A stretch of 64,000 nt of DNA from Prorocentrum cordatum (GCA_963575745.1 CAUYUJ010000103.1:1-64000); one strand, 5' to 3'; numbered from the stretch's first letter, positions 9,541 through 40,377 are shown. Notes: a model not told the origin generated them from the letters alone. Made by a program: numbers and translations.

Positions 9541-9555
9541 CTAGCTCGACTCCTT

Positions 9556-17361: not shown

Positions 17362-17539
17362 TTGCAAGAATTCTTCCTCCTCGCCGTCGTCGTCGTCGTC
17401 GTCATCCGCCTTCTCCATTCCTTCTCCTTATGAATAATTTCTCCCTGTCGCACCCCGAGGCCAGTTTTCAGGGCGGGCTGGGCGTTTCGCTTGAGACTTC
17501 CTCGCTTGAGATTTCCTCGCCACTGATGACCCTGAAGGT

Positions 17540-18140: not shown

Positions 18141-19259
18141 CCATGATCGACGTACCATACATGGTGTTTGGAAAGGGTTCACGATATATGAAGGCGCAAC
18201 ATTCACGATGATTCGCGGTGTTGAAGTCCCAGCTATGGCGTTCTGGCGCGATCCAGGAACGTCAACACGCAACAGTCAGGTTTATCCGTGGAGTTGGAAT
18301 ACCGAGAGCAATGTCTTGGCATGTTTCAGGGTCATCAATCGGTTGTCTTCCACCGAGGCAGGTCCTTTTGTGGAGATGAACCGATGCAGGGGCCTATGAA
18401 AAAGGGCACTTGGGGGAGGGCTTACTCCGGCATCGTTGGTGAACCTCCTGTCCTCCTCCTCCTCCTCCTGTCCCTTCCTCCCCCTCCTCCTCCTGTCCTC
18501 TTCCTCCAGTCCCTTCCTCTCCTTCTTCATCCCCCTCCTCCTGTCCTCTTCCTCCCGGCATACTGGTCCTGCTCCTCCTCCTCCTCCTCCTCCTCCTCCT
18601 CTTCCTCCTCCTGTCTCCCGTCCAGCCATTTTTCCAGACACATCCGACGCCCCAAGCGCATGGGGGCCGCTCAGCCTGCCAACCCCCCTGTGGCCCTCCC
18701 AGGTCAGAAACGGCCCGGGGCCCTCTGGGCCAGGATGGCTCCGCCAGTCGGCCCCCTCCAAAGGGCCCCCCCCGTTAGACAGTGCCCCCCCGAAGGGGGA
18801 GGGGGCTCTCGCCTGCCTCGTCGCCTGCCCCACTGCGGCGCGCAGGCGACGCTGGCGTACTTGGCCGGGCTACAGCTGCCCGCCGCCCCCGTGCCTGCCG
18901 GACCTGGCGCGGCTGGTCCTCCTGGCACCCCCTGGGCCATTGGGGGGATGGTGGGCTTATGCCGTTTCGACCCGCCGTGTGGATGCGTTTCCAGTACAGT
19001 CGCACGGGGTCGTTTGGGAATCGGTCCCTCTCCCCCCCTCCTCATCCTCCTCCTCCTCCTCCTCCTCCTCCTTCCTCCTCCTTTTCCTCCTCCTCCTCCT
19101 CCGCCTCCTCCAGGCTGCCATTTGGGTGTGGACGTCCAGAATGACCCCTGCTTCTCATCATGGAAGTTGCTATCGTTTTTTTTTTTTTTTTTTTTTTTTT
19201 CTCCTGGTGCATCGCCTGTGTAGTGGTATAAGGCAATATGTAGAGCGACATCGACATGG

Positions 19260-19595
19260 TATGTTTTTTTCTTATGGCGTTGAGCGTCCTTCTGCTTAAA
19301 AACATGACATAACATAAGAAAACAAGGTTTTTTTTGAACGTTATGTTGTATTTCGTCTGGGGAAAATCATGCGATCAATACGAAACCGTTGTTTTTTTTC
19401 AACGCAACGTGTCATTTCGTTTGGAAAAAAAGACAGCGAACACACAAATTCCACATGCAAAATGTGCGACGCTCGAATTTATTTTGTAGAACGACAATAT
19501 CTTGCACATCTGTTCTTTGTGAAAAAAAAAAAAAACGACACATCGCGTTGGAACAAACCCTGCGTTTTCGTATTGATCGCACGGTTTGCCACTTG
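19260..19595. repeat. AT-rich region with imperfect inverted repeats
   Basis: tgcgatcaatacgaaa (~19370) is inverted as tttcgtattgatcgca (~19566), and the similarity extends ~55 bp. ttttcttatg/cataagaaaa form a second pair at ~19267/19314. Confidence 0.75.
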
Positions 19596-20065
19596 CGATT
19601 TTGGATTCTCCGCCCTCATATTCCATTCAGGTATGTCGCTCCACGGCGAAGACGCTTGCATTGACTTGCCTTGCCTACGAAATCAAAATAAATTTGTGCA
19701 CGTATACACATTCTCCTGGGAGTGCGAAGCAGATGGCCCGAAAAGCTGGGCCCAAAACGGCCCTACCCTGAGGTGCCCGGAGCGGCCTGGAGAGTCACGG
19801 AGAGCGGGGGGGTAGGGGAGAAGGGACAACCCACCATATCATAATATCATTAATAGATCGTACTCTGGCGCGCCCTACCGTGACACAGCCTACAAGAGTT
19901 TGTCACAAGGTCCTGACCGCAGGATGGCAAGTTGTGCACAACCCATTCGCGGTTTTCCCAGAACGTCCTTATGATTTGCTTTGGGCTGCCCCCAGAAGAA
20001 ATGCTGAACTTTGATTTCCCACAGTTTTGGTATCGAGATTCAGATCTCTTAAAGGGAGGGAAACC

Positions 20066-20098
20066 TGTTTCCAGATTCTCCGGGGGAATCTGGAAACA
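20066..20098. promoter_or_regulatory. Perfect 13-bp-stem hairpin ~220 bp upstream of the transposase start
   Basis: TGTTTCCAGATTC-tccgggg-GAATCTGGAAACA. The structure is seen directly, but its function is unknown. Confidence 0.6.
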
Positions 20099-20302
20099 AG
20101 GTCGTGCCCGCTGAATTGCCCTTTGTGATCAATACACTCGCGTTACACAGGCGGCACAGAGTTGAAAAGGAGGACGACGAGGAGGAAGAGGAGCAGGAGG
20201 AGGAGGAGGACGAGGGGGAGTAGGGGAACTAAAGGATTAGGCTCGTGAGTGAATAGTGCGTAAACCAAGATCATTGCGAGGATGTGTCAAACGAACGCGC
20301 AG

Positions 20303-20321
20303 TCATAGCATTTTGGCCCAA
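20303..20321 (+). other. Relict dinoflagellate spliced leader abutting the transposase ATG
   Basis: tcatagcattttggcccaA(TG) compared with DinoSL ccgtagccattttggctcaag. Confidence 0.65.
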
Positions 20322-23300
20322 TGGCTGCACATGCTCTTGCTTGCTTAACCCGCGCTGTGTGGGCGTGCAACCCCGCCGTCGCCGATGGGGATGGCAATGG
20401 GCTCGGCGGCTTCAGGGTGTCCCTCACGACGGCTGATTGCAACAGAATCGTAGCGGAAACCGTGATCGGTTTGAGCGGGGATGCGGTGGATGACGCCCTA
20501 CTTCACGACATAAGAAGGGACTGTCACAACCACGTCCACGAGGTGGGAGGGGGAGAGGGTTGAGGGGAGGCGGGGAGGAGGAGGGGAAGGAGGAAAAGGA
20601 GGGGAAGGGAGGAGGAGGAAAAGCAGGAGGGAGAGGGAAGGGAGTTGGGGGGGAAAGGGGGAAGGAGGGAGGAGGACGAGGGGGAGGAGGAAGAGGAGGA
20701 GGAAAAGGGGGAGGAGGAGGAAGAGGAGGAGGAAGACGTCTCTTCCTCCTCCGCCACAGAGCGGGCCCTGGGCAGGCACTTCGTCACAAAGCTGTTCCTC
20801 ACACAATCTTGGACGTGCGCGATGTTTTGGCGAATATGGGGAGTTGTGACATTCCCGAGGCACGGTCGGCTTTCCAAAGCGAGTGGGGCCACGAGGTTCC
20901 TTCGGATCCCGGGCCAGGGGGGTCCTTCGGGTCCCAGGGGTCCAGTGGATTCCAGAAGTCCCTGGGTAATCATCACCGACCCCGCTTACTTTCTCCAAAG
21001 GCATCGTGTCGGGCACTCGACGTCGCCGTGTCTCGTCGGGCGGCGGCGGCTGCTGCTCCTGTGGCTGCCGCCGCAGGCGCACGTCCTCCTTCTACTCCTC
21101 CTCCTCCTTCTCATCGTCCTTATCCTTCTCGTTTGCTCCATTATTCGCCCCTCCCCCTCATCCTTAAACCTCCGCCCCCCTTCGGTGCCCGACTGAGACC
21201 CGCCGCCCCATCTGGCAGAGGGGCCAGGGGCCGAGGGCGCGCTGGCGCGCGAGGGAGAGGCCGTCGAGCTCACGGCGGCGACGGAGGATCCGACGGCGGC
21301 GACGAACCTGACGAGGATGGTGCTGACCCCTGGGAGATCATTCGGCAGTTGAAACTTAAGGTTCATCGCTTGCAAATGGATGTCAGATATTGGCGGCTGA
21401 AGGCCGAGGGTTTGTCTGATAAGCTTCAGGATGCCAAGGATGACCACAATTCATACCGAGACAGGACTTCCTTGGAGTGTCATCTCGGCGGCGGTCCGAC
21501 GGGGGTCGGGGGTCGGAGAATGGGGGGGGGGGGGACTTTCAGAAACCAGGGCTTCCAAGAAGCCCCCGATAGTTTTAACGCAACGCCCGCGGGATTACAA
21601 GTATTCACCCTGGCTTTCAGGACCCCGGGGCCCCTTCTGGGCGCCGCCGATGCATCCAAAGAAAATGCGGCGAGACGGGCGAGTGCCTTCATTAAGTGTT
21701 TCTGGCGGGTACACTTTAGCAATGCGGCGTAATCAGTCTCACACTGGGTGCGATGCCATTTTGCTTCAACAAGAAAAAAAGGGGAGCCGACAGAATGCAT
21801 CGCGGTGGGAACGACTGATGTCAGCCAATATCGTTCTGCAGTCTAGAGATTACTACTTTGAGAATTACGAATACATCATGAACTTAGCCCATCGTCAGAT
21901 ACCCTCTTCTGGCATGTCTTACGAAATACATTGCATCCGCGGCGACGGGACCAACACCACCGTGGCTGGGAACAAGGCGCCTCTCTGCCATCCTCCAACA
22001 AACCTTATCATCCCACCGACCCCCCCTGGGGTGAAGTGGGATCCCGCCCAGCGTTCGCGCGATCCTGGATCCCTTATTTGTTGGGGTGGAGGGAAGGATG
22101 GGAGGGAGGGAAGGGAGGGGGGGAGGAGGAAGAGGAGGAGGAGGAGGAGGTGGTGGTGGAGGGAGAGAGGGGGGGGGGCTGGAAAAATTCAGTCGGACGG
22201 TCAATCGCCCCCTCGATTTATGCCCCACCCAGAGTGTTTTGGATTGCCGCGGGACTTTGGGTTCCTTATCCGATGGTGTACTTCGCTGACAATTGCTAGT
22301 CGTTTCAATTTTACCTATTGCCCTCAGGCCCATACGTGTGAGGTACGGAGCTGGTTCCGCCACGCTTCCATTACAGATGATGGGCGCCCTGATTATCTTC
22401 CTGCGCCGCCCAGCCGCCTGCGCGTGTGTCATGCGGATTTGGCAAAAATCCACGAGAGTTACGGGGGTGAGGAGGCGAGGGCTACATATATCAAGCAACT
22501 ATTGGGCCTTGGCATTTTCCCTTGGACATCGGAAGCTGTGTATTTCGATCAGCCAAACATGGAGACCACGAGCGACAAGCTGCCTCCCTACATGCACGTG
22601 CGGTGGTTCATTATGTGTGCAGACCAGGGCCCGGACCAGTTGGGTTGCGACAAATTAGCGTCGGGAGATGTCAGCGACATGCTGTGCACAGTGAAACTCA
22701 GAAGTTGGTGTTTGCGGCACATTGCGAATCTGATTAGAAAAACACAGCTGACGAGACTGGACAGATACAAATATTTCGGGACTTGTGCAAAAATCGCAAA
22801 CCTCTGGAGATCTTCTGGACATCCCGCCAAGATATATAACGCATATAAAGATATTACCAGCAAGGCTCGGGCGGATGAGGTGGCGAAAGTCCTTCCCCAG
22901 CGGGCTCTGCGGAACAGATGGGGATCAATCGCGAAACTTGAAGAGAAAATACTCAAGTGCGGCCGAGACGAGCTCCCTGCCGTGATTCGTCACGCCCTGG
23001 TTCCCAAAGCTAAACGTGTTGCCAGGGGCCGCAAACGCAACCTGGTCGATGACGAAGACAATGACGAGTTCGCTTATTCGGAAAAAATTTCCAGATGGGT
23101 TAAGGAAGTCGACCAGGGCTTGCACACGAATGATTTTTGGGCTTGCTTGTATATCGCAAATAAATGTTCTGGGCCGCTGGTGCATTTGGAGCGTTTTCTC
23201 GAAGGCGCCTGGAGGGGTCGGGCGCCTTGCCAAAGCTTCGGGTCGGCGAAGAACTGAGTGGGTTTTGAATCCCTGACTCCACCGAGAGGGGGAGTGGTTG

Positions 23301-26300
23301 GACTTGCAGGTGGAAGGCTGCTGAGGAGGAGGGGGTGGAGTTGGGCGCAGGAGGAGGGAGAAGGAGCGAGGAGGGGGATTTGTTCGGAGAGGATCACCGA
23401 AACTCGTTCCCTGCCCCCCCTGGCGGCGGAATGCGCAACAGCGCTCCATACGGCTCAATGGAGCTTGTTCGTCGCCAGCTTCTTCGCCGACGCGACGGCT
23501 GTGCCTGGCGCGCGCTCCGTCCATTCCCTATCCCTATCCCAGGCAGCAGCCGCGCACAGCAGCATCGGCACGGCGTTTGGAAGGATGATGACCCCATGCC
23601 AATGTTAGAGCTTGTATCGCATAAAGCACAACTCTTTTATGACGAATTCCATTATCTTCTAGTCCGTGATCCCTGGGATGATTTGATGAATGGTGGGGTG
23701 ATGGTTTCTCTTGAGCCTGGTGAGCCGTTCGAGACGTTCGTGGAACTAGCTGCCTGCTGCGTCTTAGAGATGTGGGCAGACTTCTATTGTCGAGTATACG
23801 AGCCATGCCAGAGGTATCCCAGGAGAATGATGCTTCTCGTGAAGGAAAGCCCATTGGTTGAGGATGTCACGCGCAAGCAAGTAGCGAGAGAGATGGTTGG
23901 CCCTGGGAGATCTAGGAGTCTCGACCCTGCTTCGGAGAAGGTTTCAATCTTATTCAAATCGCAATTGGAACGAGCACGGGATACGGGCGTTTTGGATCAA
24001 GGATTATGGGACTGTCTTCGGGAAGTCGCACACATGTGGCTGGTTGACACGCAAGACATCGAAGGATGTAACTCCATTCTGCGGCGCGGTGAGGGGGTCC
24101 GGGAACGCATGGAGGGGGGCCAGTGGTTGGGGCGGGGGCTTCTTCGGCTTGTTGCTTGTTGGGGGCGTTCCGATGGCTTCTTAAAGAAACCTGAGCATCA
24201 AAGAAGCGACCTGCAATATTACCGACCCCCCTCAGCCCCTATTCTCCCTCCCACCCCCAACCCCCTCGCAGCGCCGCAGACTCTTAATAAAGAGCGTGTC
24301 CAAACTGGCGCCGAATATTGGCTGGCCGCTCCTGTCCTCGCGAATCACAATCAAACGGCGGGGACTTCAGAATCTGAATCGAGATGACCGGGACGATCTT
24401 GTGAGCGCATGTGTGCATTATCATAAGGCTGCAAATGATATGATCAATGCCGAGAACGATGCCGATAGCAACGAATACAACAGATGGGCTTTTGCCAGCG
24501 TGGATGAGGTGCCCCCGCCCAAGGTCCCCCCCGAGAACCCACCGCTTCCTGCGTGTGCTTGCTCTGCCCGTGTCCTTGCAACTTTGAATAGGATCATCCA
24601 TCAGACGTTGTCACCGGCAGATGACGAAGATGATGGTGAGCCTGGAACTCGTCGCCCCAGGAAAAATTTCAACACTGAGATGGGGAAGGTTGTTCTTTGC
24701 ATCGAGTCCTGCAATGCAGCTGCGAGATATTTCGTGCCGTGTAGATATTATCGCAAGGTTCAATGGTTTTCCGAAGCCCGCTTTGTTGATTCTGTTGATG
24801 AGAGTTGCTTATTGGGGGAGATCGATCTCGACGCTGGGCGCCCCTTCCAGCCTCGGAAGGCCTTGGGCGTCATTACTGCAGCCCATTCCTCTGCCGTCAA
24901 CGAAGGGCCCGCAGGTGACTTCCAGTGCAGTCTCTGGTCATTATCTTGGGATCGCAGAAGTATTCGCTATGCTAGACTGGTCGGTGCTGTGGCTGAGCCT
25001 ATCAATATGATTGATTTGTGTTCGTGTCATGGCCGCCGGCGGCGCGGCGGAGGCGGCGGCGGCGGCAAGGGCGGCGGCGGCGGCACGGGTGGCGGCGGCT
25101 CCAGAAGAGGAGGCGGTGGAGAAGGAGACCCTGAACCACGCGAGGAGGCAGAGGGGGAGGCCGAGGAGGCAGAGGAGGAAGAAGAGGAGGAAGACCCTGA
25201 AGCCGCCGCCATCATGCGCGCATGGGGGGCCGCTGAAGCAGACTCGGACTGCCTCGAGTCAGATGATGGAGGTGACGAAGGCGATGACGACGGCTGTGGA
25301 TGGGGATCGCGACGAGGATATGTCCAGGGCTTTCGCTTGGGGGTCTGGAGACGGGCTGCGCTCGATTGAGGATATCATTAATGGCGCCATTGATGATGAG
25401 GAGGCAGTGACCGCCATGCTCAGTGCAAAGCTTGTGAGTGAACTTGGCGACGCTGGAGAGGCTGCTGATGACGGCTGCACTTCAGAGGCGCCACGGGCGG
25501 CTTCGTGGAGGGGGGCGGAGGGAGGAGGAGGAGGAGGGGGAGGGGGATGAGGAGGAGGAGGAGGAGGAGGAGGAGGAAGAGGAGGAGGAGGGGGAGGTGG
25601 AGAAGGAGGAGGAGGAGGTCTTAGAGTCCGGGGCCTTCCCAGAAACCGTCGGCAGGCCCCGAGAGAGAGAGAGAGAGAGAGAGAGCACCAATATAGATGG
25701 CCTGTTATGGGGCCCGAGCACATCCCAGGAGAAGGGCCCGGGGCCCACGCAAGGTCCAAAACGCACTTCCGCGCGTCAGGCTGAAGGAGGCGGCGTCGGC
25801 CGAGGTGGCAGAGGCCGTGGCCGAGGGGGCGGCCGAGGGCGCCATGCTGTGGCCGCTGGAGGCCCCCCGGAGCCACCGCCCGCGGGCCCTGGCGGCTCGC
25901 CCGACGGAGGCGACGAGGATGTTCGTCACGATCAGGCCCCTCTCTCCTCATCCTCTCATCCTCTCCTTCCTATTCCCTCGCCTTCCCGACCTTCCTTCGC
26001 CCCTCGCTCCAGGACTGGATCCGAGGGATTGAAAGCTTGATCTTGGCCCTGGCGTGGTTTGATAACGCGGACGTTCAGACCGCTTGCGACCACTACATAT
26101 CGTTAGCAGTCGAGCGTCTTGAGGACGACGGCTGCGTGAGCCACATTCCTCGGTGGATATATAACGACAGCGTGGACATGCAGCAAGGTCGTTTTGTGCA
26201 CGTGAGTGGCGGTGACCACAAGATGTCGGCGGCGCCCCGTTGGCGGGAAAGGGGGCAATTGCAGCAGCCCCCATCGGGGCGCTCCTGAGAAGTATCCGTC

Positions 26301-26819
26301 CAATCACTGCCCCCCTCCCCACCCGCATGCCACCGCAGCCCCCCCCCCATCTTCGGCGCGCCGCCGAATATTGGCTACGCGCGCCCGCCGCCCCCAGATA
26401 GGCTTTGGGAGCTCTCGCTTGCTGCTGATATTGAGTCGGGAAAGCTGCAGGTTGTAATCCCGAACTCAGGTGAAAAGATGTACAGGCCTTTCCACCTTCG
26501 AGGGAATATGACTTTGAACGCAGTTCGCTTCTCTCGCACAATCGGTTGTGGCAATGATCCGTCAATCCCGTGCTGCGCTTGCGGCGTTGCTGATGCCGAG
26601 TGCTGCCCTTTGTGTTTGAGGCATTTGCACGCTTGGTGCCAGCACGACGACCCTTTGCGAGTGCTGTTGGTGAGCATCGATGTCCTGAAAGAGGCTGTCG
26701 GTGATAACCTTGCGCAGTTTCACTCACATTCGGAATTGATTGCAAAGCTCGTGGAGTGGTCTGGTGCGGCCAGGTCTCTGTGCTCACTATGTAACGAAGC
26801 AATGAAGACTGAATTCTGA
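20321..26819 (+). CDS. Multi-exon hAT-superfamily-like DDE transposase with an acidic linker and C-terminal Cys-rich (zinc-finger-like) domain. One apparent frameshift near 25290
   Basis: Motifs in hAT order: EIHCIRGDGTN (D1, 21944), IMCADQGPD (D2, ~22622), WCLRH (CxxH, 22709), RWGS (22916), DTQDIEGCNS (E, 24061). C-terminus CCACG...CPLC..H.H..C...CSLC. Approximate exons: 20321-20543, 20760-20859, 21001-21076, 21219-21464, ~21630-21976, 22328-23204, 23543-24083, 24295-25487, 25780-25935, 26014-26201, 26452-26819. Donors are mostly GC/GA. Confidence 0.8.
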
Positions 26820-27426
26820 AGTCGTCGAAAACTTGGGAGTGATCGGAGGCTCGGAACGCCGTCCGAGATTTTCTTATTCTCTTCTTCCATCAAGTCTTGA
26901 CTTCACATCCCTTCCCATCGTGCCGCCCATCTCGGCCCCACCCTCCTGGTCATGCAGCTCGCCCTCCTATCTTGCCTCCCCTGCGTCCCCCCTCCTCGCC
27001 CCGCCATCTCGATTGCTTCCCTGGCTGCCCCTCCCCTCCCCCGCGCCGCGCCGCCTGACACCGCGGCCGCCGTGACCAACAGAGGCTTCCAAGTGGTCGT
27101 CCCGCCTGCCGGGGGCGAGGGGGGGGCACGGGGGGAAGGGAGGTTGAGGGACGAGGAGCGACTTACCCCCTCAAGCTGAATAGCCTAGAAAGCCAAAGCA
27201 GCAGCCCTCGACCGACGACGAACGAAAAGAGAGCGGCGCAACGCAAAGCAAGCAGGACGGATGGTTAAGTTAAGAGGTTGTGGGAGGAGGAAGAGGGGGA
27301 GAGTGGTGCGTTGTTCAATTCTACGAAGCTTGATCATGTATCATGGAACCCAAGTCATTTAGTGGCTCTCTGTCCCTCTGTTTAGCTCGACCACCCTCGG
27401 AAGCCCCAGTGCTCTCATCGGCCGCC

Positions 27427-27813
27427 ATGGCCGAGGTCGATCCCGCGCCTCAGCGCCTTCGCTCTCGCTCGCCGCATCCATATAGATTCAGAAACATCGG
27501 CGGTCAGCTCGTCCGCTACATCGACGACTTGGATCTGGATGACATGCCTGACATGCCTTCGGTTGCACTGTGGTCACGCAATCTGGCAAATTTCCCAGAC
27601 GCACGCTTCGTGGATATCACGCACCGCTTGCGCTCATACAGAAACGTGATGTTCTGCATCAAGTGTGGTGCGTGGAGTCCCGAACCTGGTAGGCTGGAAC
27701 ATCTGCTGGTGACTCCTTGCCGCGGGGACCCAACTGATCACGGCGCTTGGGTGCTTCGCGCGCTCCGTAGGGGGCAGTATCCGCGGAGGGGTAATCGCGG
27801 ATCTTTTCGCTAG
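27427..27813 (+). CDS. Small intronless protein (128 aa) with an H...CxxCGxW...C zinc-knuckle like the C-terminus of LINE ORF2
   Basis: GCCGCCATGG start context and uninterrupted frame. The motif THRLRSYRNVMFCIKCGAWS...LLVTPCRG parallels HRC...FLCIRCGCWA in the LINE at ~52040-52100. AATAAA lies at ~27826. Confidence 0.6.
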   Translation: MAEVDPAPQRLRSRSPHPYRFRNIGGQLVRYIDDLDLDDMPDMPSVALWSRNLANFPDARFVDITHRLRSYRNVMFCIKCGAWSPEPGRLEHLLVTPCRGDPTDHGAWVLRALRRGQYPRRGNRGSFR

Positions 27814-28819: not shown

Positions 28820-29830
28820 ATCATGCGTGTGGAGGGAGTCCCAACGCACATATGTGTGTGGAGCGGGTCCACGCACTACCATGTGTGTGGAGGGGGTCCC
28901 AACGCAGCCATGTGTGTGGAGGGGGTCCCCACGCGCTCTATGTGTGTGGAGGGGGTCACCACAACCCTATGTGTGTGGAGGGTCTCCCAACGCTCTCATA
29001 TGTGTGGAGGGGGTCCCCGCAGCCTCACGTGTGTGGAGGGGGTCCACACACTCCACATGTGTGTGGAAGGGGGTCCACACGCACACTATGTGTGTGGAGG
29101 GGGTCCCCACACCCTCATGTGTGTGGAGGGGGTCCCCACGCATACTATGTGTGTGGAGGGGATCCCCACACCCCCATGTGTGTGGAGGGGATCCCCACAC
29201 TCTGCATGTGTGTGGAGGGGGTCCCCACACTCCCCATGTGTGTGGAGGGGGTCCCCACAACCCTCTGTGTGTGGAGGGGGTCCCCACGCCCTCATGTGTG
29301 TGGAGGGGGTCCCCACTCACCCCATGTGTGTGGAGGGGGTCCCCACACACTCATGTGTGTGGAGAGGGTCCCCACACCCTCATGTGTGTGGAGGGGGTCC
29401 CCACTCACCCCATGTGTGTGGAGGGGATCCCCACGCCCTCATGTGTGTGGAGGGTGTCCCCACTCACCCCACGTGTGTGGAGGGGGTCCCCACGTCCTCA
29501 TGTGTGTGGAGGGGATCCCCACACCCTCATCTGCATGGAGTGGGTCCCCACATCCTCATATGTGTGGAGGGGGTCCCCATGTCCTCATGTGTATGGAGGG
29601 GGTCTATGCACTCCCCATGCGTGTGGAGGGGATCCACACACCCCGGCGCACGTGGAAGGGGTCTCCACACACCACCACGTGTGTGGAGGGGGTCCCAACA
29701 TCACTCATGTGTGTAGAGGGATTGCTCATGTGTGTGGAGGGTGTCCCAACGCTATCATATGTGTGGAGGTGGTCCCAACGCTCTCGGGCGCGTGGAGGGG
29801 GTCCACGCGATCACATGCGCGTGGGCATGA
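28820..29830. repeat. 29-30-bp minisatellite, ~33 copies, core atgtgtgtggagggggtcccca with dyad symmetry
   Basis: Seen directly. TGTGTGG...CCACACA arms occur within many units, with a variable 7-9-nt segment between cores and decay at both array ends. Confidence 0.97.
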
Positions 29831-30041
29831 TCCCGACATCATCCACTGTGTCTCACATGTATTGGAATAGATCCCTTCACAAACGGTATGCTGAGGAACG
29901 TCACACACTCCTCATCTGTTGGTGCTGTGTAGAGAATGGTTTTTGTCAGTAGTCATTTGTCCACAGCCATTTCAGCATAATGCTTAGCAGGTACAACAGT
30001 ATATCACCAACGCCTGCTGATTGAGTTGCGCATCATTCACG

Positions 30042-31721
30042 ATGAGCCTATCTCGGCCGCTGTGCTTCAAGCCTGGTGTTGATAACGTTGCTGATCTGGA
30101 TAGTGCATTCAGATGGTTCCAACAGGGTGTCGCTAAAATCAACGCAGATAGGTATGACATTGCACGCTTGCTGTCTGGACGCAGGCTTGATACCTCTGGA
30201 GCGTTCTTCGGCGTAGGAGCAGCAGAAATTGGTGACCGAATCATTGAATCATGTAGCCGCAACTTCTGTGAGAACACCTCTGGTTTCTCGACGCCACCAG
30301 TGCGCTTCGTTTCTAAATGGGCCATTGAGAAGAGTAGCACGTGCAGGGCAGAGATCATGCATGGCAGCCTTGCTGAACACATATTCGGTGACATTACAGA
30401 CTTCCTGCCAGCCGTGTGGAAGAGCCGATGTGGGCTGCATTCAGCAGCTGACAAGTGGTCACCTGCGCAACTGAGAGCTGAGCTACCATGCGCGAAGCTG
30501 CTGCTTCGGGCCAAGTGCTTCAAATGCAATGGAAGCTATTGCGCGCTCTCGCGCACGCATATTCACCGGGCTGGATCTCCCTGCGTCCTTCACAGCAGGT
30601 TTGGTAACCAACTCAGAGAATTTGGGAACAGTCATTTCTTATTCTACACATGGGTTGCACTTACGAGACAGCTACTTCATACGGTTGTTCTTCACGAGAA
30701 CGTGCCCGAGTTCGGAGACGAAGAACTCACCACCTTGTTCGGAGACTTATATTACGTCTTCAGAATTGAATTGACACCTGCGCAATTCGGCTGGCCAAGC
30801 CAGCGGTCTAGGCAATTCGTCATTATGATCCTGAAAGATTACATTGGTGCTGGCGCGGTGGTTCCTGAACGTGCTTCTGAGGAGATGAATGACGTCCTCG
30901 ACATGGAGCATACCTTGAAGGGCATGTTTTTTCGTTCGCGTTCGCCGCTGTTCACGTGGTCGAACTACCTGATAGCCACGGACGAAGAGGTCGAGCGCGA
31001 GACGAGATGGGCCAAGAATCGTGAGTCTGTCTTGTCACGCTGGACACCAGAGGACGGAGTGTTTCCTAAGAGCCCCGTGGACAAGGATTTCCCATCCGAT
31101 GTTTACGGCGTCGGCCTCGGGTGCCCCAGCAAAGAAGAGAGGACAGTTTATGAGTCATACCGAAAGAAGTGGCCTCGCAGCGCTTGCAACGTGAGTCAGA
31201 ACCCCATGGCAATGGGTGGAAGTAAATCATTGGCTGACGGGTCGCTGCAGACCTTGTGCAAAAGCGGCGGACTTGTCGTACTCCCAGCCCCGCCCTACAA
31301 TCCTCTTGGAAACACTAGCCCCAGGTGGATGCTTCCAGAGGAGTTATTTACTAGCATGGGGTTCCCAATCTCTTTCGAGGCGCAGCGTGCTTGCTGCGGT
31401 GCAGTTTGTTCTTTCTCTCGCGGGCAGCAAGCTCCCTCTGTCCGAAGCCCTGCATGCCAACGCTCGCAGGTGGGAAATAGCATCCACGTCAACATGATTG
31501 GCGCAATTTCAACAGTAATTGTTCTGAGAATGCAGAATCTAGGTGAGCGTCTGCAAGCGCCAGCAGCTCAGACTGGTGTCTCGTCCACCCCGGACTCCGC
31601 TCCTCCCTCCTCTGCAGCGGCAGACAGGTTTCGGCGTATTTTGACTCGAGTAAATTCGGGGTCGACGTCCCCTTCGACGGGGCCCCAGAAGAGGCGCCGC
31701 GTGCGTGGGAAGACGCACTAG
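30042..31721 (+). CDS. Intronless DNA (cytosine-5)-methyltransferase, ~559 aa
   Basis: C5-MTase motifs in canonical order: I-like SGAFFGVG (~30195-30218), II AIEK, III IFGDI, IV AGSPC (Cys at 30582), VI HENV (30693), VIII FGWPSQRSR (~30790-30812), IX RWMLPEELFTSMGFP, X QVGNSI (31473). No stops. Confidence 0.9.
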   Translation: MSLSRPLCFKPGVDNVADLDSAFRWFQQGVAKINADRYDIARLLSGRRLDTSGAFFGVGAAEIGDRIIESCSRNFCENTSGFSTPPVRFVSKWAIEKSSTCRAEIMHGSLAEHIFGDITDFLPAVWKSRCGLHSAADKWSPAQLRAELPCAKLLLRAKCFKCNGSYCALSRTHIHRAGSPCVLHSRFGNQLREFGNSHFLFYTWVALTRQLLHTVVLHENVPEFGDEELTTLFGDLYYVFRIELTPAQFGWPSQRSRQFVIMILKDYIGAGAVVPERASEEMNDVLDMEHTLKGMFFRSRSPLFTWSNYLIATDEEVERETRWAKNRESVLSRWTPEDGVFPKSPVDKDFPSDVYGVGLGCPSKEERTVYESYRKKWPRSACNVSQNPMAMGGSKSLADGSLQTLCKSGGLVVLPAPPYNPLGNTSPRWMLPEELFTSMGFPISFEAQRACCGAVCSFSRGQQAPSVRSPACQRSQVGNSIHVNMIGAISTVIVLRMQNLGERLQAPAAQTGVSSTPDSAPPSSAAADRFRRILTRVNSGSTSPSTGPQKRRRVRGKTH

Positions 31722-32352: not shown

Positions 32353-35300
32353 ATGGCTGCAGCGAAAGCTCCGGAGTGGATGGGCGACACCTTCGTGCCT
32401 GCAGTTGATGGCAATCCGTACGAGGATCGTAACTATGCTTCGCTCGAGGAGATGCCTGGGGCTGGAGCTCTCCTCCTCCTCCTCCTCCTCCTCCTCCTCC
32501 TCCTCCTCCTCTCCTCCTCCTCCTCCTCTCCTCCTCCTCCTCCTCCTCGTCCCCCCCCTCCTCCTCCTCTCCTCCTCTCCTCCTACTCTCCTCCTCCCCC
32601 CTCTCCTCCTGACCCCCTGCGCCGTTTCGGGTGGCCAGGGTGCTCTCGCAGGTTCTGTTTGGGCGCTCTCTGTGCCTAGGGGGCCTCTGTGGCAAGAATC
32701 CTACGAACGCCGCGCCCCTATCAACTTTAGGAAACAATCGAAAGACCGTCGCCTCTGAAGTTTGATAGCCCAGGGGCTCATCCTGGCTTTTTCAAAACCC
32801 TCATGGGCACCAAGAAGAGCTCAAGAGGGGGCCCACGAGCCCTCCTGGGTCCAAAGAAGACCCCAAGAAGAGCCCAAGAGGGGATCGGACAGGGTCCCAC
32901 GAGAGGCACCGAAAGGGCCCCCCTGCTGTCAAGATGGCGGCCCTCGTCCTTTACGGAAGGCCCTAGAAACATCCCTCAGGCATTCTCGTAGGCGTCCATC
33001 TCCCTCCTGTCTTCACTCTGCGTGCCCAGAGGAGCGGTGGTTCCCCTTGACCGGGCGCGTCCTGCAGAACAAGGCTCGCGCCTGCTACGTGGTGAAGGAC
33101 AGCGTTGAACCTAACGCGGGGTTGGAGAGGAGAGGAGGCGGCGCGGTCGGAGCAAGAACGGCCGGGAGGCAAATGAGGATTGAGGGCGGAGGCTCGTGAA
33201 AAGGACGGGAGAAGGAGGAGGACTTTCGTTTTCGGCCTTTCTTGGTCCTCCTGGGGGTTCCTCCTTGTCACCGCTGGATTCGCTTCGAAATTCTAGTCAG
33301 AACGCGCGCCAAGAGAGGTCCGGGGACAACGCGGACTCGGATGAGGATTGCCTAACCAGGGCCCTCGTCTTCGACGACGTCGAGGGCGACAGTGACGATG
33401 TCGAACGGCGACGAATGTCTTGGCCAGGAGCACGAGAAACTCCCATTCTTCGATCCCGACGGCGGGGAGATGTGGGAGCGCCACCCGCTCAACGACCGTG
33501 ACCAGAGTCACACCAGGGAGGAGTACGTCGCCAAGCTCGTTGACAAGGGCTGGATTATCGGCGCGAGGGGCGAAGTCACCTTCATTGAGGGCACGGATTG
33601 CTGGGATGCAAATTCACCCCCCAATGCCGACCTCGCCGTCTATCTCCCCATACTTCCTCCCCACCCTCTCCTCGCCTCCTCACTTCCTCGCCCCTATGCC
33701 ATACCTCATCCCTCCCACTCGCCCTCTTTTCCTTCCTGGGCCCTCACGCCCCGAGGAGGACCAAGAGTTTTTTTCTGGTTCGGTTCGCCCGCGTCGGGGT
33801 CCGCGGTCCGCTCCAAGTATGTTCCGCTTCGGGCCGACGATGAGCATACTGTTCAACAGACGCCAGTGCCGACCTTCCCCCATCCAGAATGATGCCCGCC
33901 CCTCATTCGTTGCTAAATGTGTCTTTTGTGTGTGGTGGGGGGGTCCGTTTCCAGGAGTACAAGACGAAGAGCGGAGTCGTCTGCAACAAGAAGCTTATTC
34001 TCGGCGGCGCCCACCTGATAGAGGCGTTCTACATCGCTCTGAAACAGCATCCGAATGCTCCGCAGTTGCACGCGAGCCTTGTCGAAGGCGTGCCTGACTG
34101 CACGCGCGTCGATGCCCGAACCCCTTCGGACGGCCTCAAGTACTTCGTCGACATCAGCAACGAGCTCAACGGTTTCGCGTCGAGGACTTCCTTCTTGCAG
34201 ATGTATCGGCGCGTTGAGGACATTGGGAAAGGCTACACCAACCACCTGAAGCGCGAGACGCAGCAGCAGCAGCAACACCAGCAGCAACGCAAATTGGCCG
34301 CCGCCGCCGCCACTTTCGAGGGGGCGCTTGCGGGCGGTGAGGGCGGCGAACCAGATGCCGCGGATCAGAAGCCAGCGGGCGCGGACAGCAGCAAACGCAA
34401 AGCCGATGACGCCGCTGACAATGCTGGCGGCGAGCAGCCTGCTTCCAAGAAACTTCGGAGTCAGGCTGGCTACGAGACCGAATACCTTAACTGGATGAAG
34501 AAGGCCTTTCCAAACACCTTCACGCACATGACTGTGTTTAAGGCGGCTCGCGCGTTCAAGGCGAAGATGGTTGAACTCAAGCAGTGGGAGCCGTTCGCGG
34601 ACTACATGGAGGCCCACGTCAAGTTCACTGAGACCTTCGATCAAGGAAACGTTATCCATTGTCAGGCGGCCGTTTTGAACGCGTTCGCAGCAGAAGCAGA
34701 AAGGCCTGACATCATGACAGAGTTCTTGGTGCCTGCATTGCGTCTTTGCGCGCCGACCAACGACGGAGTGCCCCAGGTGTGCTTCTCTGTGCGGAACACG
34801 GCTGTCAAGCTGTTCTCAGGCTTCGTTGACGTCAGGATGTCGAAGTGCGCCGAGGCAGTGGCCAAGGCTAAGGCAAGTGGAAAGACAAAGAAGGGAGCCG
34901 CCAAAGCGAAGGCCATGGGCAAGGTTGGGGACAAGGCTGTGGCCGCTATGCCGCTGCCGCCCGCTGCCAGCAAGACAACTTTCTGGGGCGACGCCCTCAA
35001 CGTGATCGCGATGGTCACCAAGGACGCAAAGAGTGTTCTCGCTGAGGTCACCTGCTGCTGCTGCTGCTGATTCAAGGCTGTCCGCCCAACCTCCCCCTTG
35101 TCCTCTTCTCTCCTCCTCCTCCCCCTCCTTCTCCCTTTAGTCCTCCTCCTCCTCCTCCACCTCCTCTCCTCCGTCTGCTCCTCCTCCTCTCCCCCTCCCT
35201 CCTCCTCCCTCCTCCTCCCATTGGGAAACGCCGAAAAAGATTATGTGACGAACCCATCGATCTTCAAGTATTCCAAACAAGTGCGGTACGAAACCTCGTT

Positions 35301-38300
35301 TTTCTAGCCGCCTTGAGCGACCCCGGGCGGTAGGCGGAGGAGGAGGCGGAGGAGAAGGAGGAGGAGAAGGAGGAGGAGGTGGAGGAGGGAGAGGTTGGAA
35401 TGCGTGGGGAGAGAAGGAGAGGAGAGGAGGAGTAGGAGTTTTTTTTATCCATCTGCGCGTCCCTCAGGTCGTGGAGGACGCGAAGTGCTACGTGATCATG
35501 CAGATCGTGCAACACGAATGCACGCTCCCGATTCGCAATGAAGGCGACGTGCAGGTCTGCTCGCGGGAAGGGGCCGTGCCAGCCCGATTTGGCGTTCCAG
35601 CGTTCCCTTGCCATGAGAAAAAACAGAAGGGCGGCGAGAAGGCCCCAGGAGGGCCTGGGCCCTCAAGGAACCACCCTTGGGCGTTCTTGAGGCTCCTTTG
35701 GAGCCCATCGCCGCAATTCCACGATTGTCCTCAGGCCGTCACGGGTCGTCATATCACCGCCTTGGGGGCCCAGGGAGGCCCGAGCCGCCATTGCGATCCC
35801 AGGCTGCTGCCAGGGAGCGTCGCGGCGGACGTTGCTTTCTGTCTTAGGTTGTCGGGCCCTAGCCTCTTCGAGCATCCTCTGGTACCTCCTGGTACATCCT
35901 CTTGGTACATCCTTCGCGGCCTTTGGAGCCTTGCAGCTTTGGGCGCTCGTGCGGGCCCGAAAAGGACCGAAGGGCGGCCCGAGAGATGGCCTGGATTCAA
36001 GGACCTTCTTGCCCCCCCAAGACGATCCTGCGGCGGCCTCAGGCCCTCGGCGTTCGTCTTCTGTGGCCCATCACCTAGGTCAAAGGCTGGACCAAGTTCA
36101 GGAAGGCCCTCGCGCGGTTCGTCATTGCCCAGCACGAATACAACGACGGCGTCAACTTGCATTTCGAGAAATTCAAGGATACGGGGTCGGCTGGCGAGCA
36201 GGGCATTGATGATGCGTCTTCTACTATTGCGGTCATGGGCCCTGTCCCTGAGGCCTTCCACGAGGGGATGGTGGTAACTTTGCGCGACTACTTGGAGAAG
36301 GATCCCGTCGATATTTCGACGTGGGACGAGGCTGGGGACTTATCCAAAGTGCTGGGGAAGGACTCTTCCATCGCCGTCGCCCGCGTCGTGTCGGCGAGCA
36401 AGGGCGCATGGGCCAGCAAGTCTCACATTTGGTCGCCAGCGATGGCAGAGGCATTGGAACCTGCAGCCGATGTCGACGCCTGCGTCAGTGAAGTGTTGAA
36501 CCAAGTCTGGCTTGCCGTAGAGGGACTGCAGCCATCGGCGGTGTGTAAGGTACTGAGCAAGTTTGTGGAATTGCCGAAAGCTGACAACTTCGAGGATCTA
36601 TCTGCCTTGGCCGACGTCCATCCAGTGTTTTGCCAGCCCCTGAAGTATTTCAAGAGTTGCGCCGACGCCGTCGTCTACTTGAACTTTCGGTCACGTTTCG
36701 TGATGTCACTGATCGACGAATCGTGCAGTGCGATGCAGGACATGATCCAGAAGAAGCAGGGCAAGCCCTCTGCGTTGGAGAACACTGTGGCGTATTTGAA
36801 GAAAGGCCTCTCTTTCGTCCGTGCAAACACAGAGAAAGTTGCGGTATCTGATTTTCGGTTGGCAGACGACTCCAGTTGGAAAAGCTTGTGGGCGAGGCTG
36901 ATGAAAAAGGCCAACGAGGAGGCTCCGAAGGAGGAGTTCGCTGCACAGAGGGAGAAGCCGTCTCAGCATTGCGGCGTGGACTTGGAATCAATGACGGCTA
37001 AAGATCTGAAGGGGTTGGCCTCCCATTTCAGCATAGCCTTCGAGAGTAGCATCAAGAAGGCGGAGCTGGTCAAGCTCATTTCTGACAAGAAGGCGACGAT
37101 TGCAGCTGCAGATGAATCGTTGCAGCAGTCTGGGCCAAACGTTGACGACTGGTGGGAGCGCCTTGCTGGTGAGTTTACTTCGGGCGTGGACGTCATCGAG
37201 AGGGCACTGGCAGAGGAAGATGAGAAGCTGACCATTGGCGAATACTATTTTCCCTCTGCGGCTCCGTCTGCGAGCGGTCTGAAGGCTCTTGGTACTGTGG
37301 CGTTCGCAATGAACGCGACCCTGAGCATGATCGACGACATCAAGGCCCACAGGGAGACCAACGTCGAGTGGATGTCTTTCAAGGCCGACGCGAACAACAA
37401 CGGACAGGTTGCAAGGCCTGTGAAGTTTCTTGGGCCATCGAAGGCCGAACTCGAAGCAGATCCGACTATCTTGGCTAAGCTCCCGTCATGCCGTCTGTTG
37501 ATGCGTGGCCGCGTCACCGCCATCCCTGCTGGAACTTCTGCGGGGCTTAGTAAGTTCTACGTCGGGAAGGCGCTCGGCGGCTACAACTTGGTCGTGACGC
37601 CGCTGAGCCCGAATCAAGACATTGGTTGGTCCATGAAGGTGGTGACGGGCGAGGACTGCTTGCCCACGATGGTCGTCGACGACGAGAGCAGCTACGATAT
37701 CGTGACAAAGGGCCCCGACGGCACGGACTGCGCTATCAAGGTCATCACGTTGATGCCGAACCCCGAGTGGATCGCCTCCCTGGCCAACCGCGTGCGCAAC
37801 GATGAGTCCGCGGACAGCGCCCGGGACGTCATGAGTAGGCGCGCCTTTCCTGAGGAGCAGGATGCGATGGACAAGGTTGCCAAGGCGCCACGGTGGAGGT
37901 GGAGGGGGGGAAGAGGAGGGGGAGGAGGAGGAGGAGGAGGAGGAGGAGGAGGATGAGAAAGAGGAGGAGGAGGAGAAAGAGGATGAGGAGGGGAGGAGGA
38001 GGGGGGGGAGGAGGGGGGGGGACAAGGAGGAGGAGGAGGAGGAGGAGGAGGGTAGGAGGAGGAACCTGGCGTCTGGGCACTCCGCCGAACGCTTGAGAGC
38101 GAGGCTCTGATGATGATGTGGAGGAGGAGGAGAAAGAAGAGGAGGAGGAGGAGGAGGAGGAGAGGACGAGGAGGAGGAGGAGGAGGAGGAGGAGGAGGAG
38201 AGGAGGAGGAGAGGAGGAGGCGAAGGAGGGGGAGGAGGAGGAGGACGGGAGGCGGGCCCCCCCTCCTGGCGGCCTCAGGCGCTGGCCGACAAGAAGGCCG

Positions 38301-38550
38301 CCAGGGAGATGAAGAAGAAGATCCTCGGTCCTGCCGACGAGACTGAGGACTCGCGGTTGGTGGGGAGAAGAGGAGGAGAGGAGGAGCAGGAGGAGGAGGA
38401 GGTGGTGAGAGGAGGAGGAGGAGGAGGAGTCCCGAGGAGGAGGAGGAGGAGGAGGAGGAGGACGAGGAGGAGGAGGACGAGGAGGGAGCAGGAGGAGGAG
38501 GAGGAGAGGAGGAGGAGGATGGAGGAGTCTGAAGATGCGGAGGTGGAGGA

Positions 38551-38581
<31 letters not shown>

Positions 38582-38719
38582 GAGGAGGAGGAGAAGGAGC
38601 AGCAACAGCAGCAGCAGCAGCAGTCCCCCTTGCCCCGAGAGGAATGGGAGCCATCCAAGATCGACAACGAGTCGAAGATGGCCCTTGCGGCAGGGCACCT
38701 TCTGGAGAAGAAGGGTTGA
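32353..38719 (+). CDS. Multi-exon protein (~1,150 aa) with a ParB/Srx-like N-terminal domain and an HeH/Rho-N-like motif. Function unknown
   Basis: Approximate exons: 32353-32448, 33032-33097, 33429-33589, 33955-35046, 35468-35554, 36079-37885, 38279-38347, ~38640-38719. Two long clean coding exons. YVAKLVDKGWIIGARGEVTFIE...LILGGAHLIEAF resembles the ParB 'G..P..V...i.dG.hR..A' pattern. DLESMTAKDLKGLASHFSI.....KKAELVKLI (~36979-37080) matches HeH/Rho-N. Confidence 0.7.
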
Positions 38720-39559
38720 GGGGTTGAGGTCGCCCGCGCATTCGGGCGCCGCTCGCAGGTGAATTGGAGGAGATGGGAGGAGGAAGAGGAATAGAACAGC
38801 ACTGGGTGACGTGGGGACTTGGCGGCGTCTTTGAAGGCCGCCTGTTCCTCCTCCTCCTCCTCCTCCTCCTCCTCCTCCTCCTCTCCTCAGCCTGTTCAGC
38901 GGTTTTCGGGCCAGCTGCAAATCCGAAGCTCCGAAGCTCCTCCTCCTCTCCTCTCCCTCCTCCTCCTTCCTCCTCCTTCTTCTCCAGCCGAATTTCCCCA
39001 ATCCTCTTTTTTATCACCGTCCTCCTCTTCCTCGTTCGCCATTCTCCTCCCCCTCCTCGCCCTGCTCCTCCTGCATCCGCTGCTCCTGCTCCTGCTGTTG
39101 CTGATGGTGTGTTGTTGTTGTGCCTGCCTCAGCTCCCTCCTTCTCTCTCATCCTCCTCCTTTCCTCCCCCCTCCTGTTTCACTTCCTCCTGTCCCTCCTC
39201 TTCCTCTCCCTCCTTCCCCTTCTCCTCCCTCCTCCTCCTCCTGAGGAGAAGGAGGGGGGGGGGGAGGAGAAGCCTCCCCGCACCTGTGAGCCCCCCAGCT
39301 GGCGCCCCCCCGCAGCTCCTCGTCGCAGGCCCGGGCGCGCGGAGGCGCGAGACTCGGGACCAGACCGCGGGCTCGGAGGGCCGAGCCACTGAGCGTGCGG
39401 TGGTCGTCGTCGTCGTGCGGCTGCGTCGGCGTCGTTCGTCCTCCTTCCTCCTCTTCCTCCTCCTCCTCCCACCTCTCCCTCCTCCTCCTCTCCTCCTCCT
39501 CTTTGTCCTCATCCTCATCCTCCCTCCCTCCCTCCCTCCCTCCCTCCCTCTCTCCCTCC

Positions 39560-39900
39560 CGAGTCGTCCAATGGTGGTGGCGGTCAGTTCGTCGTCGTTT
39601 GCCTCGGTGGCCTCGTCATCGTCGTCGTCGGCTTCGTTCGTCGGACTGCAGTTCAGGCCCGCCAGACAAGGACCCCCCCTACAACTCGCGGTCTGGAATC
39701 TAGAATGGCCGACGGGTTCGTCGTTGTCGTCGCCGTCGGAAGCTTCGTCGAGGTCATCGGCCTCGGAGTCGTCGTATCCGTCGTCGGAGGCGTGTTTCAT
39801 CGGCCTCAAGGCGGCCTCGCGTTGTGCGGTCGTCATCGTTCGGTTCGGGCTCGTGAGTGTCCAGCGGGGTGCGTCGTCCTCAGGTTTCGCCGTCGTTCGT
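39560..39900 (-). other. Possible acidic (D/E-rich) coding exon on the minus strand
   Basis: MTTAQREAALRPMKHASDDGYDDSEADD...CRGGPCLAGLNC, followed by a purine-rich intron-like tract. No recognisable domain. Confidence 0.3.
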
Positions 39901-40377
39901 CGTTAGCGAGTCGTTAGGCAGCGGCGTCGTTGTCGTCGAGGCGGCGGTTTCGTCGAGTCGGCCGTCGAGTCGTCGCCGCCGCCGTCGCTGCCGCCGCCGC
40001 CGCGGGTAGGAGGCGGGCAAGAAAAGAGGAGTGGAAAACGGAAGGAACAACCCAGATCTTACGAGGGGGAAAAGCGACGCGCCCTCTGCGGGCATGATTT
40101 CTACGCCTTCGTTTTTCTTGGGCCGCAAGATTTCGACGGAAATCTCGATGCGGCATCGCTTGCCGCAGTGCTTTTTCCCAGCGGTTTTGAATAGATACGT
40201 GATTTCTGTTGCGTGCTTTCCCGTTCGCTTCAAACGAAAGCGCCGCGGCCGCGGCGGCCGCTTAAGAAGAGATTCCTGAATAATCCAACGCTGAGCTGCC
40301 TCCTCCTTTTTTTTTTTTTTTTTTTTTTTTGGTCCTCCGTTCTATGATGGCACTTTCTTCCTAATATGGACGTCCCC

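Follow-up and report, generated by a model that had tools for sequence, protein, structure and literature searches.

A candidate 21-kb hAT-like transposon with a cytosine DNA methyltransferase gene in the dinoflagellate Prorocentrum cordatum

A 64,000-nucleotide stretch of DNA from the dinoflagellate Prorocentrum cordatum (GCA_963575745.1, CAUYUJ010000103.1:1-64000; the window from here on) contains a block of three genes on the + strand: a spliced gene for a DDE transposase with a predicted hAT fold, an intact gene for a C5 cytosine DNA methyltransferase (DNMT), and a spliced gene for a protein with a HeH-like motif. A satellite lies between the first two genes. The block is enclosed by a candidate pair of terminal inverted repeats (TIRs) with a candidate target-site duplication (TSD), whose ends at 19126 and 40379 bound 21,254 bp (Table 1). 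An earlier interpretation made from the DNA alone (the sequence-only reading) had described the block as a giant hAT-type transposon with four essentially intact genes, one of them ParB-like, set among retroelements riddled with stops. Long open + strand frames were found at the positions it gave, and the genes are real, although its gene count did not hold and its ParB-like label and its account of the flanks were not confirmed. Its interpretation gained support from the hAT affinity of the transposase, the intact DNMT, element-like ends and a recurrence of the gene order at one distant locus (L001), while the separate zinc-knuckle gene and the supposed lack of precedent had to be given up.

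The transposase belongs to a family that is invisible to sequence models. A phmmer search of 1.84 billion representatives with the exon at 22301-23257 returned 633 relatives, counted as clusters at 50% identity, at E<=1e-3, 215 at E<=1e-10 and 13 at E<=1e-30, with the closest library relative at 38% identity. No Pfam model scored above its cut-off in any of the 107 family members scanned (29 + 78; two weak, irrelevant rows appeared among the first 29). The Pfam hAT models (Dimer_Tnp_hAT PF05699, hAT-like RNase-H and BED finger) stayed below cut-off in the window exons and in all 107 members. The window exons likewise drew nothing from Pfam as a whole, PHROGs, NCBIfam or a phmmer search of the PDB, and viral contigs yielded no relatives of the transposase. 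Searching for the family with alignment A1 brought up 5 proteins.

The fold of the family was modelled with AlphaFold2 (AF2) on P0005, a full-length relative of 681 aa that matches the window exon at E 5e-44; the input alignment had 43 rows, the window exons among them. The resulting model had a predicted local distance difference test score (pLDDT) of 88.1 and a predicted template modelling score (pTM) of 0.84. In a Foldseek search with this model the top 11 rows were all Hermes (best 4d1q_A, E 5e-6, probability 1.00). VIA-align superposed model residues 76-648 on Hermes 136-609 with Z 17.3 (385 residues, root-mean-square deviation 3.9), and the next scores were 9.0 for ISCth4, 7.4 for the P element and approximately 6.3 for RAG1 and Transib. 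The structural alignment reaches Hermes residue 609, in the C-terminal region, despite the absent Pfam match. In the model, the first D lies on strand 1, the second D right after strand 4 and CxxH right after strand 5, followed by an all-helical insertion of approximately 300 residues and then the E-bearing helix; an RNase-H-like DDE core interrupted in this way after strand 5 is the hAT layout. As a lead only, all 10 of the 10 Atlas structure neighbours listed for family member P0025 were hAT clusters. Judged by the model of a relative, with Hermes at Z 17.3 against 9.0 for the next family, the hAT assignment made by the sequence-only reading is right at the level of fold.

That assignment had been drawn from the order D...D...CxxH...RW...E, which is present in the window exons: GDGTN lies in the open reading frame (ORF) 21650-21988, DQGPDQ, CLRH and RNRWGS all lie in ORF 22325-23206, and IEGCNS lies in ORF 23602-24084. 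The window copy retains all catalytic and motif residues, and the family columns D260, G262, D264, C289, H292 and R356 are nearly invariant. Farther downstream, ORFs 24185-25369, 25785-26288 and 26289-26819 are C-terminal exons of the same gene. Family member P0027 (841 aa) spans ORFs 24344-25030, 25785-26288 and 26289-26819 in order (E 1.3e-10, 5.7e-4 and 5.6e-4). Two profiles contained no window sequence: one of nine family tails matched ORF 24185-25366 at E 7e-28, and one of six family C-termini, run against 1,252 ORFs, matched 26289-26816 (E 1.3e-10) and 25785-26285 (E 3.6e-6). The C..C...C..C...H..C finger of ORF 26289-26819 also ends five long family members. Given the span of P0027, the tail and C-terminus profiles and the common finger, the zinc-knuckle ORF that had been counted as a gene of its own is therefore the last exon of the transposase gene, and the transposase, DNMT and HeH-motif genes make three genes rather than four.

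Frame-keeping junctions of the G[TCA]..AG type were available for 6 of the 6 exon pairs tried. A GC-AG intron at 21977-22327 restores the family motif K-A-H-x-C-E-V-R-S by joining NK to AHTCEVRS, and an intron at approximately 26214-26411 would take out the in-frame stop at 26286; the junction between exons E5 and E6 falls in low-complexity sequence and its placement is uncertain. The spliced product would be approximately 1,250 aa long, comparable to the long family members of 1,100-1,550 aa. Upstream of the catalytic exons, the coiled coil was alone in giving a match (E 7e-4); the extra N-terminal domain of some long family members was not found upstream in the window. In P0011, P0020, P0025, P0066 and P0068, an extra stretch of approximately 130-250 aa precedes the coiled coil and has no counterpart in the window copy; when those of P0011, P0020 and P0025 were aligned, the motif RC(F/V)F proved conserved, and a stretch resembling SAP/HeH could be made out by eye. 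Matches to a relict spliced-leader motif upstream of the genes were not significant (7 at 3 mismatches vs 2.4 expected).

Pfam recognises the DNMT alone among the genes of the block. On ORF 30021-31721, PF00145 scores 37.2 bits (E 3e-9; cut-off 22), and the DNMT also matches PHROG 116 at E 1.8e-12. It retains motifs I (FxGxG), IV (PC), VI (ENV), VIII (QxRxR), IX and X (GN), which appear in the alignment as SGAFFGVG..E, AGSPC, HENVPEFG, GWPSQRSRQ, RW..PEEL..MGFP and GNS.H.N and are invariant across the alignment with the relatives P0001 and P0002. With a Pfam score above cut-off and all motifs kept, the gene is intact, as had been proposed. These two relatives, at 41% (P0001) and 29% (P0002) identity, were the only ones among 8,000 scored candidates from a 5.8-billion-protein collection, and a metagenome scan with the DNMT alignment found 2 loci, L001 and L002. 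None turned up in viral contigs or in prokaryote genomes. On these comparisons we assign the DNMT to a rare orphan lineage. A reverse transcriptase (RT) or other retroelement domain was found in 0 of the 15 ORFs neighbouring the gene.

Candidate ends of the block were sought as 15-nt inverted matches with <=2 mismatches, with low complexity excluded and any flanking repeat allowed, in a search space fixed beforehand (left end 18900-21350, right end 26820-41500). This space contained 41 TIR-like pairs, and at just one of them, 19126/40379, did the flanking repeat exceed 5 bp, reaching 7 bp; pairs with flanking repeats of 3-5 bp were one-base shifts of it. As controls, 80 shuffles that preserved local composition gave a best flanking repeat of <=5 bp, and the same geometry slid to 15 places in the window gave <=6 bp. 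Simple arithmetic puts the chance expectation of such a pair in the preset space at approximately 0.004. In the whole window there were 2,423 TIR-like pairs, one with a 7-bp repeat (19126/40379) and one with 6 bp.

The sequence-only reading had seen no TIR pair or TSD. The candidate pair provides TIRs identical at 13 of 15 positions and an exact CATTTGG repeat, and its ends lie approximately 75 and 50 bp from the block limits drawn by that reading, which these coordinates bear out. A strict scan (exact 8-bp repeat plus 12-nt TIR) had returned 0 matches because the repeat reaches 8 bp (CCATTTGG) only if one base is shared with the terminus. A relaxed scan gave only GAG/CTC low-complexity artefacts, and a general repeat search only low-complexity inverted repeats; both sets were discarded. 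The two ends match further, at 9 of 10 positions, at the common offset 31-40 (CATCATGGAA vs CATCATAGAA), and the exact 13-mer GTGKGGACGTCCA occurs nowhere in the window but at the two ends. Beyond the TSD copies, the flanks are neither inverted nor similar, as insertion predicts. A hypothetical empty site was not present elsewhere in the window, and 5 matches to the terminus pattern in viral contigs were taken as chance. We had also considered whether 19.2-19.6 kb might be a divergent strand-switch region within a host gene array, but gave this up on finding the candidate terminus at 19126.

The ends are also echoed inside the block. The two halves of the satellite core are the two terminal octamers of the candidate element, arranged as an inverted pair. 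GTGKGGAS occurs 34 times in the window, 29 of these in the satellite and 1 at the left end, and STCCMCAC occurs 21 times, with 16 in the satellite and 1 at the right end. The satellite might offer the transposase an array of binding sites, or it might be an end-to-end junction that has been amplified. Together, the offset match, the unique 13-mer and the satellite octamers argue against chance ends.

Table 1. Coordinates of the genes, candidate termini and repeats of the block in the 64,000-nucleotide window.
Feature	Position	Strand	Basis or remark
Left copy of candidate TSD, CATTTGG (or, if a base of the terminus is counted in, 8 bp: CCATTTGG)	19119..19125	.	direct reading
Left TIR, GTGTGGACGTCCAGA	19126..19140	+	
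Left subterminal region: T26 run at 19176-19201, then AT-rich, GC 0.39-0.40	19176..19600	.	
Spliced gene, predicted hAT-fold DDE transposase	20836..26819	+	start tentative; splicing from homology and G[TCA]..AG sites, not RNA
Transposase exon, coiled coil	about 21325-21476	+	predicted
Transposase exon, first D	21697-21976	+	predicted
Transposase exon, second D, CxxH, RW	22328-about 23200	+	predicted
Transposase exon, E	about 23560-24083	+	predicted
Transposase exon, tail	about 24295-25125	+	predicted
Transposase exon	about 25918-26213	+	predicted
Transposase last exon, PHD-like Cys/His finger and stop	about 26412-26819	+	predicted
Small open frame with CxxC motif (CIKCG…C)	27334..27813	+	between transposase and satellite
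Satellite, ~30 units of 29-30 nt, core GTGTGGAG-GGG-GTCCCCAC	28822..29720	.	
Intact single-exon C5 cytosine DNA methyltransferase, 559 aa, assigned to an orphan lineage	30042..31721	+	PF00145, motifs
Spliced gene, HeH-like motif protein, >1000 aa	33398..37956	+	comparison with P0003 and sequence; 3' end tentative
HeH-motif gene exon 1, start codon, then GC donor at 33608	33398-33607	+	
HeH-motif gene exon 2	33955-35058	+	
HeH-motif gene exon 3	about 35459-35557	+	
HeH-motif gene last exon	36079 to 37827 or beyond	+	
Long GGA/GAG low-complexity run downstream of HeH-motif gene	37895..38599	.	
T24 run, ~50 bp inside right end	40308..40331	.	
Right TIR, reverse complement GTGGGGACGTCCATA, 13/15 identical to left	40365..40379	-	
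Right copy of candidate TSD, CATTTGG	40380..40386	.	

Whether homologues of the genes recur in the same order at other loci was a check that the sequence-only reading had proposed. Of the two relatives with usable flanks, one showed the link. L001, a metagenomic sequence of 3,963 nt, has 314 codons from the start of a DNMT gene whose product is 30% identical to the window enzyme. A 602-codon ORF lies 1.2 kb upstream on the same strand and ends in a C..C…C..C…H..C finger. We compared this ORF by hhalign with the nine-member tail profile, which contains no window or L001 sequence, and obtained a probability of 76% (P 2.3e-5, score 47.7); scores stayed at or below 27.4 in 50 local-composition shuffles and at or below 18.5 in 51 comparisons with L002 ORFs, and the reversed sequence reached 18.4. 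Rebuilt tail profiles gave P 2.8e-5 and 1.5e-4, and the finger region alone scored 30.2 (P 1.3e-3; 60 shuffles <=19.7). These scores are moderate evidence that a transposase tail with its finger, then an orphan DNMT, may stand in the same order in a very distant organism. The other relative, L002, is a metagenomic contig of 15,987 nt (GC 47%) with an intact, distant DNMT of the orphan lineage (22-25% identity), which sits among co-oriented ORFs without a family match.

Base composition sets the transposase and DNMT genes apart from the host. GC content across the window ranges from 52 to 71%, in keeping with the P. cordatum genome mean of 59.7%; the mean coding GC of the species is 65.9% (PMC10666404). 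The transposase exons have a GC of 50-52% and a GC at third codon positions (GC3) of 0.53-0.59, apart from one short exon at 56.5% and 0.69, and the DNMT has values of 54% and 0.58. These two genes are alike in composition, un-host-like and well below the coding GC of the species. The HeH-motif gene, with a GC of 57-60% and a GC3 of 0.73-0.80, is closer to the host, which fits later capture or an unrelated origin.

The last exon of the HeH-motif gene is 98% identical to P0003, a 975-aa 'unnamed protein product, partial [Prorocentrum cordatum]' whose 90% cluster has 5 members. The window product differs from P0003 at approximately 24 positions, and therefore a second copy or diverged allele of the gene exists. 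Six PHROG families matched residues ~250-340 of the last exon (ORF 36079-37956) at E<=0.01 (best 4e-6), and the Pfam HeH model PF12949 matched at E 0.19, under its cut-off; with a sub-cut-off Pfam match and PHROG matches, support for the putative HeH motif is weak. As to the ParB-like label, ParBc (PF02195) went unmatched up to E 10 on both exon pieces and on P0003, the putative domain being split by the first intron, and the resemblance consists of a by-eye pattern, LILGGAHLIEAF, without statistical support. A phmmer search of the PDB with the ORFs of this gene gave no match, no relatives of the protein were found in viral contigs, and the AF2 model of P0003 was unusable (pLDDT 32.5).

Collectively, these findings lead us to favour, at a probability of roughly 60%, a reading in which 19126-40379 is one very large, divergent hAT-like cut-and-paste transposon with a DNMT passenger, residing in nuclear DNA. 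Several observations weigh against it. Only one copy of the element is in hand, the one in the window. In the protein library, the transposase exon has no relative at >=50% identity and the DNMT has no close relative among proteins of 311-991 aa; in the absence of close library relatives of these two genes there are therefore no annotated paralogues of either, and the HeH-motif gene is annotated. The TSD of hAT elements is usually 8 bp (5-7 bp in the hAT5, hAT6 and hAT7 groups), and their termini usually begin YARNG. The flanking repeat found here has 7 bp and attains the canonical 8 bp only by sharing a base with the terminus, and the candidate termini do not begin with YARNG. The T26 and T24 runs, both on the + strand and approximately 50 bp inside each end, are direct and not inverted, and therefore stand outside the inverted repeat; they are unexplained. 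Four variants of the terminus search were run, and in the whole 64-kb window approximately 0.15 pairs with a 7-bp repeat are expected by chance. At L001, the similarity of the upstream ORF to the family was not seen by BLAST or hmmsearch, and after realignment approximately 90 columns were confidently aligned, at 13% identity. At L002, no transposase-like or HeH-like ORF was found in the 9.5 kb upstream and 5 kb downstream of the DNMT. The GC3 of the HeH-motif gene lies above the ranges of the other two genes. Finally, the shared orientation of the three genes says little, because the majority of P. cordatum genes are unidirectional; 64.8% are dispersed duplicates (PMC10666404).

Many of these points serve the main rival to the single-element reading, in which three ordinary neighbours stand in a unidirectional array, the transposase is a lone, decayed or domesticated hAT-like one, and the TIRs and 7-bp flanks arose by chance. 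Such an arrangement would suit a genome of mostly unidirectional genes and dispersed duplicates, and it is favoured by the chance expectation over the whole window, a DNMT of the same lineage without a transposase at L002, the differing GC3 of the HeH-motif gene and the single copy of the block. We nevertheless consider it unlikely: the terminal pair falls next to independently proposed limits, where approximately 0.004 such pairs are expected, the ends match again at a common offset, the terminal octamers recur in the internal satellite, and the order of transposase tail and DNMT is seen again in L001.

The satellite itself invites another division of the block, into two abutting units: an autonomous hAT-like element with the transposase alone, from 19126 to approximately 28.9 kb, and a non-autonomous cargo segment with the DNMT and HeH-motif genes, from there to 40379, with the satellite as their amplified junction and the whole having moved as a macrotransposon at least once. 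Each satellite unit has an inverted pair of terminal octamers and could act as an internal end, and the outer 7-bp repeat implies joint insertion of the whole. Neither half, however, has a flanking repeat in our scans, and L001 suggests that the adjacency of transposase and DNMT is old, the two DNMTs being 30% identical, so we regard two units as quite improbable. Weakest is the proposal of a domesticated, immobile host pair, in which a hAT-derived PHD-like protein works with the DNMT, for example in targeting methylation, and the genes are adjacent for co-regulation: an intron-rich gene, the conservation of both the PHD-like finger and the long tail across 5 long members of the family, the adjacency in L001 and relatives on 2-3.5-kb contigs resembling transcripts speak for it, but the catalytic residues are all kept, the 633 clusters resemble a transposon radiation, the block has TIR/TSD-like ends and a GC lower than is typical of host coding sequence, which makes this very improbable.

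For the single-element reading, we propose the following mechanism. The transposase, with its N-terminal coiled coil and long C-terminal tail with a PHD-like finger, would bind termini of the GTGKGGAC type and, probably, the internal satellite, whose core is made of the terminal octamers. Excision would follow the hAT route, with hairpins on the flanking DNA, and reinsertion would use a staggered cut of 7-8 bp. The DNMT may be a long-standing passenger of the transposon lineage, because a 30%-identical relative again follows an ORF resembling the family tail, and the HeH-motif gene was probably captured more recently, because its codon composition is more host-like. As to the role of the DNMT, we speculate that CpG methylation in the palindromic GGACGTCC termini or in the satellite might tune transposition; it might alternatively add to the pervasive methylation of the host. 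A bolder version, which we find doubtful but worth stating, holds that this is an ancient giant hAT-like lineage of dinoflagellates and other marine protists that has carried its own DNMT since before its hosts diverged, gates transposition through CpG termini and satellite, and picks up host genes. If that were true, it would be the first DNA-transposon-borne cytosine methylation 'writer' in a cellular eukaryotic genome.

The candidate element resembles the hAT transposons Hermes, Ac and Tol2 in the D, D, CxxH, RW and E motifs, in short, imperfect TIRs, and in a family fold that, in the model of the relative, follows Hermes across the catalytic and insertion domains; a flanking repeat of 7-8 bp would also agree. 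It is unlike them in that the 107 scanned members of its family lack a Pfam hAT, BED or Dimer_Tnp_hAT match, and in its N-terminal coiled coil and its tail of approximately 500 aa ending in a PHD-like finger. Its two passenger genes and its internal satellite of terminus-like octamers also set it apart. The usual length of a hAT element is 2.5-5 kb, and the candidate is 21 kb long.

The sequence-only reading had called the combination of a cut-and-paste element with a DNA-modification gene undescribed, but there are precedents. In rust and mushroom fungi, DNA transposons, the hAT7 elements of rust fungi among them, are reported to carry TET/JBP genes (PMC12730594). As described there, the TET/JBP hAT7 elements share with the candidate a 7-bp target duplication and a DNA-modifying enzyme gene co-oriented with the transposase. 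Their enzyme is a dioxygenase that removes or oxidises methylation, whereas that of the window is a C5-DNMT, a writer. Those elements come from fungi, encode transposases that can be recognised as hAT from sequence, and were defined on the basis of many copies (PMC12730594); the window element is known from one. Mariner-1_OLpv, in a giant virus, is reported to encode a C5 cytosine methylase (Bao and Jurka 2013, PMC3627910), and is thus likewise a cut-and-paste transposon with a C5 methylase beside its transposase. By that account it differs in being a small Tc1/mariner element of a viral genome with a restriction-endonuclease-like gene, which forms a restriction-modification-like module (PMC3627910).

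The statement that DNMTs are borne by dinoflagellate retrotransposons was sound: the Symbiodinium retrotransposons SymbioLINE-Dnmt and SymbioDIRS-Dnmt3 are described as carrying them (de Mendoza 2018, PMC5890265). According to the same report, dinoflagellate genomes are heavily methylated, and the expanded, intronless DNMTs of Symbiodinium lie inside retrotransposons (PMC5890265). As in those elements, the DNMT of the window is intronless, of orphan type and in a putative dinoflagellate mobile element; the Symbiodinium elements have a reverse transcriptase (PMC5890265), whereas the window DNMT has no RT domain in its neighbourhood and is partnered by a DDE transposase. In the literature searched (including PMC12344493, PMC11453091 and PMC5890265), we found no case, in dinoflagellates or in cellular eukaryotes at large, of a DNMT carried by a hAT element or by any other DNA transposon, although one may still be in print. 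Transposon-borne DNMTs are so far known mainly from retrotransposons and virus-borne elements.

If the single-element reading is true, DNA transposons were recruited in the same manner as the DNMT-bearing retrotransposons, and the pattern of fungal TET/JBP transposons would extend from methylation erasers to writers. A large family, with 633 clusters and none of its 107 scanned members matched by Pfam, would join the hAT superfamily, for which a length of 21 kb would be unusually large. The element is also tractable: with defined 15-bp ends, a palindromic CpG core and an intact transposase and DNMT, the effect of self-methylation on transposition is directly testable.

Between the transposase gene and the satellite, the small open frame with a CxxC motif had no match in any library or among 155 fetched proteins. 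Trinucleotide runs differ across the window. To the left of 19.1 kb they are CTC/CCT on the + strand (2-19 kb), and inside the block (20-40 kb) they are mostly GAG/GGA, with none at 40-52 kb and few at 52-64 kb; the switch from CTC to GAG falls at the left terminus. The two spliced genes had been said to share a GAG/CCT-rich intron style. GAG/GGA runs are indeed present within the predicted introns of the block genes, but complementary CTC runs fill the 2-19-kb flank, so the style is not specific to the block.

The flanks were sampled through 39 ORFs scanned against Pfam, which gave 1 relevant match above cut-off, an RNase H in an 844-aa open frame at 57488-60019 (-) (E 3.8e-6). This frame is one of several long open frames in a retroelement-like region at 55400-61500 (-), and the claim that every flanking retroelement is riddled with stops does not apply to it. 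The left flank, rich in CTC, contains a tandem duplication of 1,391 bp at 14573-16484 with 99-100% identity (14573-14872 with 15964-16263, and 14926-15093 with 16317-16484), and a satellite of approximately 7 units of 83 nt lies at 17539-18136. The only other pair in the window with a flanking repeat of >=6 bp is an inverted 15-mer pair (13/15) at 3523-10632, flanked by the direct repeat CCGCGG and enclosing 7.1 kb, which could mark another element or be due to chance.

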